This document shows, in pieces, positions 28,716 through 29,719 of a stretch of DNA of 32,000 nt; the first letter of the stretch is position 1, and the number at the start of each line of letters is the position of its first letter. This DNA comes from Xylanibacter ruminicola 23 (GTDB lineage Bacteria > Bacteroidota > Bacteroidia > Bacteroidales > Bacteroidaceae). The DNA lies in NCBI RefSeq assembly GCF_000025925.1, contig NC_014033.1, positions 1,800,001 through 1,832,000 of the forward strand, in the 5' to 3' direction. The notes beneath the pieces are model-generated. The model had not been told where the DNA came from, did not search any database, and was given only the letters and a program-made list of their open reading frames with translations. A program made the translations under genes and the position numbers.

Positions 28716-29719
28716 CTAAATAACGAAGATTTTTTTTAGGTATGGCGTCTTCATTATCAACCAACTCACGGATAGGATAAGTAACAATATTAAGGCCCAC
28801 TGAGCTACTGGCTCAAAATATCCCAAGAACGGGAAATGACCGTACTTCATAACAGCTCCTATCACACGATCATGAAAAGCATACACAGGAATAAACAAAG
28901 GAGATATTTCGCTAATCAAAAATGATCTCCTAATTTGCAATTGTAAGATCGTCACAAAGATTGCAAAAACAGAAAAGACACATAAAGAAGAACCAAACAT
29001 AAACTCTGCGCCATATTTACCTATGGATGGGGTCAGATACGAAAAGAATACCGTATAAAGTGCCCCCCCCCCAATAGTATAAATAGAATTGGACGACTTA
29101 TAGTCTTCCACTTATAATCTGTTTTAAAAAAAGCTTTGATTTGCTCCGAATTCTGTCTTATGTATCCTCCTAAACAATAATAAAATAACCAATTCCAAAG
29201 TCGAAACGTTTGAATTACGTTAGACTCAAAATTGTCTTTCACATTTGCCACAAACGCAAAGGACATTAATAAGAAAAGAATAATCAAACATAGTTCTGTA
29301 CCCCAGGGCTTCTTCATTATATTATTGAAAAAAGGAGTGGCTGCATAGCATATAATTATAGCACCAAAGAACCAAAAATGGCCAACAGGACCTTTTTGAA
29401 ACAAACTTAAAAAGATATAATCCTTCACCAGAGAAACCGCATCTCCTCCATCTTTTAACCAATAAATTATAGCTACAAATACTATTATTCTAAAAATCCT
29501 TAATGTTTTTTTAAGGATATACTTAAAATCTATTGTTCTTCCTATCTGTAAGAATCCACTTGTGGTGAAGAACAAAGGGATTGCCCAACCACCTAAAGAA
29601 TATAGATACCTTGAGAAGATATTGTCATAAGATTCTAAACCGAGCGTCGTATGTAATGATACGACACCAATCATAGCAAATATCTTAATCAGATCTAACG
29701 ATAATACTCGTTCTTTCAT
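28716..29719 (-). pseudogene. acyltransferase family 3 (sugar O-acetyltransferase) interrupted by a frameshift in a G10 tract
   Basis: ORF 29033..29719 starts MKERVLSLDLIKIFAMIGVVSLHT, typical of acyltransferase-3. ORF 28716..29111 has no ATG (GTG at 29111) and looks like its C-terminal half. The two frames meet at the homopolymer, and one extra G would join them into a roughly 334-aa multi-TM protein. Confidence 0.8.
29063..29072 (-). repeat. homopolymeric G10 tract on the coding strand (C10 on the plus strand)
   Basis: Ten consecutive C read directly at 29063-29072, within DNA that is otherwise about one-third G+C. Confidence 0.95.

Follow-up and report, generated by a model that had tools for sequence, protein, structure and literature searches.

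Why should a gene for a membrane acyltransferase, embedded in a surface polysaccharide locus, be broken exactly at a run of ten guanines? The question is raised by positions 28716 to 29719 (minus strand) of a 32,000-nucleotide (nt) stretch of Xylanibacter ruminicola 23 (contig NC_014033.1, positions 1,800,001 to 1,832,000; the whole of it is hereafter called the window), where a G10 homopolymer divides a gene of the acyltransferase-3 (AT3) family into two overlapping open reading frames (ORFs). Comparison with related sequences makes it probable that this tract is a slipped-strand (simple-sequence-repeat) contingency switch in an AT3-only acyltransferase gene of a Wzx/Wzy-type locus. This kind of switch is already known; the taxon and the breadth are new.

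The G10 tract and the gene that it divides

The elements on which the argument depends are the following:

29063..29072, minus strand: homopolymeric tract G10, the frameshift site and proposed slipped-strand switch, coding for Gly217-219 of the fused protein
28716..29719, minus strand: whole AT3 gene, in the OFF phase as sequenced, of 334 residues at G11 and 333 at G8
29033..29719, minus strand: 5' ORF of 228 residues with an ATG start, made up of 219 native and 9 out-of-frame residues
28716..29111, minus strand: 3' ORF in the other frame, of 131 residues counted from a GTG, the last 115 being the native C-terminal third of AT3

Direct reading of the window gives ten G on the minus strand (C10 on the plus strand), exactly where the two ORFs, which overlap by 79 nt, exchange frames, as a first-pass annotation of this DNA had pointed out. 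The 5' ORF enters the tract as ...ILFILLGGG and meets a stop nine codons later, its end being ...ILFILLGGGHFIRYSFRI*, while the 3' ORF reads across the glycine run as ...YTIGGGALYTVFFSYL... (in a second rendering of the stretch around it, ...YTIGGGALYTVFF...) and continues for 115 residues until its stop at 28716, open to the C-terminus ...WLIMKTPYLKKIFVI* that is conserved in the family according to the alignment with relatives. The same annotation had given the 3' ORF no ATG, and its 131 residues are counted from a GTG at 29111, which sits 39 nt 5' of the tract. It had also expected a continuous protein of about 334 residues from G11 or G8 and had called the sequenced allele OFF; when the tract was edited in silico, G11 gave a single ORF of 334 residues and G8 one of 333, and G9, G10 and G12 remained out of frame with early stops. 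The tract lies within an ORF, is long enough for hypermutability and is positioned so that changes in its length switch the frame, as is characteristic of simple-sequence-repeat contingency loci. GJG33968.1 / WP_049769114.1 of Xylanibacter (Prevotella) ruminicola has exactly the sequence of the 228-residue product.

No other G/C run of at least 6 occurs in the window. By chance, 0.02 runs of at least 10 would be expected in the whole window and 0.002-0.006 in the 15-kb locus, and the improbability that had been claimed for the tract therefore stands; the accompanying estimate of one-third guanine plus cytosine (G+C) is true of the glycan locus only (33-39% at 17-32 kb, except one 1-kb bin at 42.5%, and 33% around the AT3 gene) and not of the window, at 43% overall. 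The tract contributes the only three GGG codons of the gene (GGG makes up 16% of the glycine codons in 12 neighbouring genes), and codon usage does not account for it.

The fused G11 protein matched Pfam Acyl_transf_3 (PF01757) with an E-value of 4.6e-37; its score of 128.2 bits exceeds the gathering cut-off of 31, and the alignment pairs residues 6-323 with profile positions 2-325 of 326. This full-length match places it in the AT3 family; the 228-residue product alone covers about two thirds of the domain. An AlphaFold2 model of the fused protein, built on 16 relatives (pLDDT 86, pTM 0.88), is an all-helical membrane bundle with about 10 long helices (residues 6-28, 34-58, 65-90, 113-134, 138-162, 174-201, 208-233, 237-259, 267-293 and 297-324), in agreement with the fold of about 10 transmembrane helices (TMH) known for AT3 proteins (PMC9833829). 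In this model the tract-coded Gly217-219 fall in the middle of helix 208-233, so that the G10 product is left without half of predicted helix 7 and without helices 8-10. The 3' part corresponds to predicted helices 7b to 10, including P278, Y280 and H283, which, together with F332, are invariant in the 16 relatives, lie downstream of the tract and are all present in the window gene. In the model of OafB the N-terminus and TMH9/10 flank the acetyl-CoA channel (PMC9833829), so we may reasonably infer that the truncated G10 product would be inactive.

Two sequence motifs have been described for AT3 proteins (PMC9833829). The first, R-X10-H in TMH1, is said to be 'absolutely conserved' (Arg14 and His25 of OafB); in the subfamily of the window gene H23 is invariant, the position of the motif's Arg, 11 residues before it, is held by an invariant Lys (K12), and an invariant R4 stands eight residues upstream of K12 (the codons of 4, 12 and 23 are within 29650-29710, minus strand); the subfamily thus keeps the chemistry of the motif, though not its exact letters. 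The second, RXXR at the cytoplasmic face of TMH3, was found as R74-I-F-R77 in predicted helix 65-90; K71 is invariant in relatives, and R77 is replaced by K in the allele of contig L002, described below. A Foldseek search of the model against the PDB gave no significant match (all E >0.1), the best TM-scores, 0.45-0.49, being those to human HGSNAT, an enzyme assigned to the same superfamily as AT3 (PMC12423673); these matches were not used for family membership. An NCBIfam search returned no specific family for the protein. By family analogy, it would transfer an acyl group across the membrane to the polysaccharide repeat unit, acetyl donated by acetyl-CoA being the likeliest. The context of this predicted glycan acylation consists, within the window, of family-2 glycosyltransferase (GT2) and Wzy-like neighbours, GT4 genes and genes for UDP-galactopyranose mutase and a hexapeptide transferase; the syntenic locus of L002 has, just upstream, a gene for a Wzx-type flippase.

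In the switch that we propose, replication slippage would add or remove G in the homopolymer. With G8 or G11 both halves would be joined in frame, giving a full AT3 of about 10 membrane helices that would acylate the repeat unit, and with G9 or G10 translation would end nine codons past the tract, halfway through predicted helix 7, leaving a truncated product without helices 8-10 and the P278/Y280/H283 motif and a glycan that lacks that acyl group. The sequenced strain would be OFF, and the addition of one G would be the single step to ON. A population would thus mix acylated and non-acylated variants of its surface glycan and would presumably be hedged in this way against glycan-recognizing agents, of which phage would be the obvious candidate in the rumen. 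Reversibility and the switching rate in this strain, as well as the acceptor sugar and the selective agent, are matters that we infer.

Tract lengths among orthologues and homologues

A comparison of tract lengths in relatives, which the first-pass annotation had proposed, yielded G8 with an intact gene in L002 and lengths from G6 to G12 in homologues, and it favours the phase-switch reading through ON and OFF frames, pairs of contigs that differ in the tract alone and tracts that recur in homologues. L002, a Logan contig (SRR16020824), is syntenic with the window and 95.1% identical at the nt level, has the gene order PFL-like, activase, GT2, AT3, Wzy and ATP-grasp in common with it, and encodes an intact AT3 of 333 residues (P0101). 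Over 5.7 kb the two sequences are separated by 277 substitutions and four indels. Two of the indels fall between genes, a third is an in-frame 3-nt repeat change, and the fourth is the tract difference of 2 nt. The tract is consequently the sole frame-breaking indel in that interval, and once it is corrected the window gene contains no second lesion. Synonymous divergence (dS) of AT3 between the window and L002 is 0.08, about half of the 0.16-0.18 of the flanking GT2 and Wzy genes (window 27387-30743 vs L002 4977-8331), which could reflect recombination or a separate history of the AT3 segment.

Among homologues, a protein search retrieved truncated variants that end just past a glycine run in three different subfamily clades, and G tracts were confirmed in DNA at three sites: at about residue 217, as in the window gene; about 12 residues further upstream, in the P0102/P0006 clade (G7 OFF, G8 ON, G9 OFF); and at about residue 258, in the P0010 clade (G6 OFF, G7 OFF, G8 ON, G11 OFF). 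Overall, G/C tracts of 6-12 occupy at least eight positions of the domain (about residues -4, 145, 165, 181, 194-203, 217, 255 and 276), and their distribution indicates that tracts arose independently at many positions. Representative genomes of GTDB include metagenome-assembled genomes (MAGs) of Prevotella with G8 (ON), of an unclassified organism with G7 (OFF), of a member of the Prevotellaceae with G12 at about residue 203 (OFF) and of a member of the Muribaculaceae with C9 in codons 6-8, by which the ATG is put out of frame.

The most direct evidence is offered by alleles that are otherwise the same. Contigs L116 and L008, obtained from different samples, are the same over 4554 bp (0 mismatches) but for a single gap at the tract itself, G9 (OFF) in the former and G8 (ON) in the latter, the G9 breaking the 336-residue protein into pieces of 209 and 141 residues; L130 and L143 likewise show 0 mismatches and 1 gap, G8 (ON) vs G7 (OFF). 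The latter pair falls within one human-gut allele family (at least 98% identity) that has G7 on six contigs, G8 on two and G9 on two, and because the two G9 contigs are 18 single-nucleotide polymorphisms (SNPs) apart, tract length and SNP genealogy disagree. In a collection of 15 billion proteins, the exact ON product of this family is found on 26 contigs, the G9-OFF product on 38 and the G7-OFF product on 39-121.

The tracts are also concentrated in these genes. A scan of metagenome contigs (74 loci) counted 27 G/C runs of at least 7 inside AT3 genes and 13 in the flanks, that is, 0.37 vs 0.043 per kb (ratio 8.5, binomial p 6e-11), whereas in a sample of 61 homologues from outside the Bacteroidales, most of them from Streptococcus, not one has a G/C run of at least 7 in the gene. 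Eight of the nine tract-bearing flank ORFs scanned encode glycan enzymes, namely five further AT3 paralogues, a GT2 and two GT14 'Branch' proteins, and the positions of the runs are:

G/C runs of 7-9 in neighbouring genes: L039:3935, L118:1336, L121:1054, L121:2172, L122:642, L123:3689, L055:2039, L184:4770

Out of frame among these neighbours are the GT2 (G9), one of the five AT3 paralogues and, probably, one GT14, and judging from such sequences several genes per related locus may be switchable. A further flank run (L128) lies in a short ORF that is AT3-like in appearance. Within the G7-G9 allele families there are, in addition, in-frame tracts that are interrupted, GGCGGGGG and GGGGGGAG (L134:3266-3273, L139:3266-3273), which look like natural 'locked-ON' versions.

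A further line of evidence comes from the sequence beyond the tract. In the clade with the tract at about residue 258, no OFF allele has a stop in the 65 codons that lead from the tract to the conserved C-terminus ...IMKIPYMDKVFRI*. Between L029 (G11, OFF) and L031 (G6, OFF) the synonymous sites of the codons past the tract are saturated, with a proportion of nonsynonymous differences (pN) of 0.26, and ON/OFF pairs of the clade have a ratio of nonsynonymous to synonymous divergence (dN/dS) of 0.10-0.15. These values indicate that segments downstream of OFF tracts remain under purifying selection and that, on the evolutionary scale, OFF would be a transient state; selection at the protein level on a currently untranslatable sequence is as expected if each lineage repeatedly passes through ON. 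Taken together, the window gene and its family show what is typical of contingency loci, namely length polymorphism alongside an intact gene and, as signs of maintenance by selection, a tract that is over-represented, composed of disfavoured codons and recurrent.

Explanations other than a switch

The alternative that survives best, unlikely as we consider it, is a plain pseudogene: a one-off slippage (e.g., from G11 to G10) would have killed a dispensable decoration gene in this laboratory lineage, the tract being accidental and decay lying ahead. It is favoured by the strain's long history in the laboratory and by several of the observations that weigh against a switch. Every assembly of the window allele reads G10, and this orthologue is known in two lengths only, G10 and G8, in alleles 5% apart at the nt level. 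Between the window and L002, dN/dS of AT3 is 0.25 upstream of the tract, 0.86 downstream of it (9 nonsynonymous and 3 synonymous changes, an underpowered comparison) and 0.36 for the whole gene, against a tighter 0.097 in the flanking GT2 and Wzy genes; this is a weak indication of some relaxed constraint, which is to be expected of an often-OFF gene and of a young pseudogene alike. With so little divergence, not much can be learned from finding no second disabling mutation. As for the homologues, the differences in tract length among metagenome contigs could include homopolymer consensus errors, and the raw enrichment counts (74 loci) include near-duplicate loci. Consensus errors are unlikely, though, because the coverages taken from the contig names of the human-gut family are within 42-63x (G8 42x and 58x, G9 63x) and the same lengths are found on dozens of contigs. 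Since near-identical loci inflated the raw counts, clusters at 90% identity were re-counted, and after this de-duplication 15 of 45 metagenomic gene clusters have a run of at least 7.

Other observations speak against the pseudogene. The first-pass annotation had named further disabling mutations as the sign of a decaying gene, and none was encountered: at G8 or G11 the ORF runs through without a break, and the invariant positions beyond the tract are retained. The intact orthologue also keeps an uninterrupted G8 of rare GGG codons, the same design recurs at many positions of the family, where alleles in the ON and the OFF state match in all else, and purifying selection is seen past OFF tracts. 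A frameshift in a long homopolymer would, moreover, be reversible anyway.

Far less probable is recoding, in which RNA polymerase slippage or ribosomal frameshifting would give some full-length enzyme, leaving the gene 'dimmed' and not OFF. The 79-nt overlap of the two ORFs would suit it, and RNA polymerase slippage can occur on long homopolymers, although the efficient sites of transcriptional slippage that are known are mostly A/T runs. However, relatives make the full-length product from ordinary in-frame G8 tracts, and their OFF alleles lie one G below and one G above the in-frame length (G7 and G9), so that no single programmed shift rescues both and recoding is unlikely family-wide.

We give hardly any credence to a sequencing or assembly artefact, in which the true tract would be G11 (or G8) and the gene intact, an outcome that the first-pass annotation had allowed for in the case of G11. 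Homopolymers are error-prone on some platforms, and exact-pattern scans (tract plus flanks, with variable length) of GTDB genomes and JGI metagenomes found no further alleles, and thus no more copies for comparison, the window's own genome being absent from both scans of genome collections. Nevertheless, a second X. ruminicola assembly (L001, GCA_019973335.1), 100% identical to the window over 5968 bp, has G10; so do all of six separate Illumina-type SPAdes assemblies of different ENA samples (L020-L025; stated coverage 1.7-448x, i.e., up to ~450x), which contain a fragment 100% identical to 29114..28193; and the truncated 228-residue product is present on 4 contigs, three of them >1 Mb. It is because of this recurrence of G10 that we reject an assembly error. 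The wider set to which the six belong (L010-L025, ENA ERZ761544-ERZ761558) consists of short high-coverage contigs with fragments 100% identical to window 29829..29115 and 29114..28193, cut between TTA and TAA and joined to the palindromic linker GAGTAGAATTCTACTC or to Nextera adaptor sequence, one contig being a hairpin-like inverted duplicate; it looks like a linker-ligation or restriction-type library with DNA of this strain, and these ERZ7615xx contigs were used solely as independent reads of tract length, not for context.

Finally, it is scarcely credible that the 228-residue N-terminal part and a separately initiated C-terminal fragment (from GTG 29111 or an internal start) act as an AT3 in two pieces. 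The 3' ORF can indeed be read from a GTG that precedes the tract by 39 nt, but the break cuts a predicted transmembrane helix in half, no homologue is in two genes except at frameshifted tracts, and the same alleles are also found as single in-frame genes.

Locus context and comparison with known systems

A contingency switch in AT3, as we favour it, would operate within a tightly packed, operon-like array of minus-strand polysaccharide genes, which runs in the order PFL-like glycyl-radical enzyme, activase, GT2, AT3, Wzy-like polymerase, ATP-grasp and GINT1_N-like, and further contains a GT4, a hexapeptide acyltransferase, a UDP-galactopyranose mutase, an FkbH/HAD protein and two more GT4 genes. 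The neighbours concerned here are:

29736..30743, minus strand: GT2 gene (PF00535, E 7.7e-27), directly upstream of AT3 with a 16-nt spacer
27387..28712, minus strand: Wzy/O-antigen-ligase-like polymerase gene (Wzy_C, E 4.7e-07, 30.1 bits, just under the 31.7 cut-off)
30792-31640: radical-SAM activase (TIGR02494, 173 bits)
31615-31914: ORF for the C-terminus of the glycyl-radical enzyme, whose gene extends beyond the window
26246-27379: ATP-grasp enzyme
25320-26234: GINT1_N-like protein
19595-21448: FkbH-domain/HAD-IIIC protein
16481-17317: IS200-like Y1 transposase ORF, located at a G+C step at about 17000

The GT2 gene upstream of AT3 is syntenic in L001 and L002. The Wzy-like gene begins 3 nt past the AT3 stop codon, and because about 320 nt of untranslated mRNA precede it in the OFF phase, the OFF frame may lower downstream wzy expression by polarity, in which case the switch would reach beyond acetylation. 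The PFL-like glycyl-radical enzyme has 664 residues in L001 and L002 (L001 1-1928; L002 2109-4926, paired with the activase), and the presence of this enzyme and its activase directly upstream of GT2-AT3-Wzy is unusual for a capsule-type locus. The FkbH/HAD-IIIC, GINT1_N-like and ATP-grasp proteins suggest non-sugar substituents on the glycan. Exactly at the IS200-like ORF the G+C content falls from about 49% to about 35%, which is consistent with a glycan locus that was horizontally acquired or exchanged. A second set of glycan genes, at 6282-12613 of the window, has normal G+C, encodes a Wzx-like flippase, a GT4 and a GT2, and includes no G/C run of at least 6.

The surface polysaccharides of Bacteroidales determine recognition by phages, antibodies and competitors, and their variation is now ascribed almost wholly to invertible promoters. 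Whether G/C tracts constitute a widespread and largely undescribed second layer of glycan phase variation in gut and rumen Bacteroidales (Prevotellaceae, Muribaculaceae and relatives) is, in our estimation, evenly balanced; such a layer may act gene by gene, on AT3 above all but also on GT2 and GT14, atop the invertible-promoter switching of whole loci. If it exists, each capsule locus would yield several chemically distinct glycans, multiplying the known repertoire, and many of the 'frameshifted' or 'truncated' acyltransferase and glycosyltransferase calls in genomes and MAGs of Prevotella and other Bacteroidales would be switch states and neither pseudogenes nor errors. Since the tracts arose independently at many positions and ON and OFF can be read in metagenome assemblies, the phase state of capsule decoration would be trackable in natural communities; its scoring from existing metagenomes would open tests of phage- or host-driven selection in rumen and gut. 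The X. ruminicola reference strain, for its part, is predicted to make the non-acylated form of its polysaccharide and to be able to revert.

The closest named relatives of the window protein are the capsule AT3 proteins ('repeating unit acetyltransferase') of the Streptococcus mitis group and pneumococcus, of about 329 residues and about 32% identity over 96%, and unlike the window gene the streptococcal homologues sampled are without a G/C run of at least 7. In the literature searched, whose coverage is incomplete, we found no report of homopolymer phase variation in glycan genes of Prevotella or Bacteroidales save a speculative remark on a C4/C5 run (PMC3090145), and the AT3 review does not mention Bacteroidota; 'Poly-G' in two 2026 papers was irrelevant, being a read-trimming option in one case and polygalacturonosidase in the other. 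The first-pass annotation had described a homopolymer switch as unusual for Bacteroidota, which agrees with this literature but not with the sequence data, where tracts are common in this gene family. The remark concerns Bacteroides fragilis 638R, in whose PSI/9 locus an extra C in a C run disrupts an acetyltransferase-related gene, and whose authors speculated on slipped-strand variation (Patrick et al. 2010, PMC3090145). As here, an acetyltransferase-related gene of a Bacteroidales polysaccharide locus is frameshifted at a homopolymer, although that run has just 4-5 C, too short for a classical hypermutable tract, and the observation is a single one.

Capsule phase variation in Bacteroides is attributed to invertible promoters and is invertase-mediated, and a 2025 review on phase variation treats the genus solely under inversion mechanisms (PMC11868660). 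Both systems would give stochastic ON/OFF expression of surface polysaccharide traits in gut Bacteroidales, but inversion acts on the promoters of whole loci, whereas the mechanism proposed here is a replication-slippage frameshift of one decoration gene. In that respect it resembles Campylobacter jejuni, whose capsule and lipooligosaccharide (LOS) genes are switched by poly-G tracts (PMC8437040, PMC8355987). There too, G/C homopolymers of about 8-12 lie inside glycan-modifying genes, several per locus, with combinatorial surface variation as the result, and the loci related to the window likewise have tracts in GT2, GT14 and second AT3 genes. C. jejuni differs in being without canonical mismatch repair, and its switching rates and its selection by phage or host have been measured.

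The counterpart in enzyme type is oafA of Haemophilus influenzae, an AT3 LOS O-acetyltransferase whose phase variation depends on a tetranucleotide repeat within the gene (Fox et al. 2005, summarized in PMC9558356). That repeat lies near the 5' end, whereas the window gene has a G homopolymer halfway through helix 7; its host is a proteobacterial pathogen and its substrate LOS heptose, in place of a rumen commensal of the Bacteroidota and a Wzy-dependent polysaccharide; and its switching has been proven experimentally, whereas ours is proposed from sequence comparison. In both cases, nonetheless, an AT3 membrane O-acyltransferase of a surface glycan would be set ON or OFF by the length of a repeat within its gene, and oafA was also first noticed as a frameshifted gene in a reference genome.

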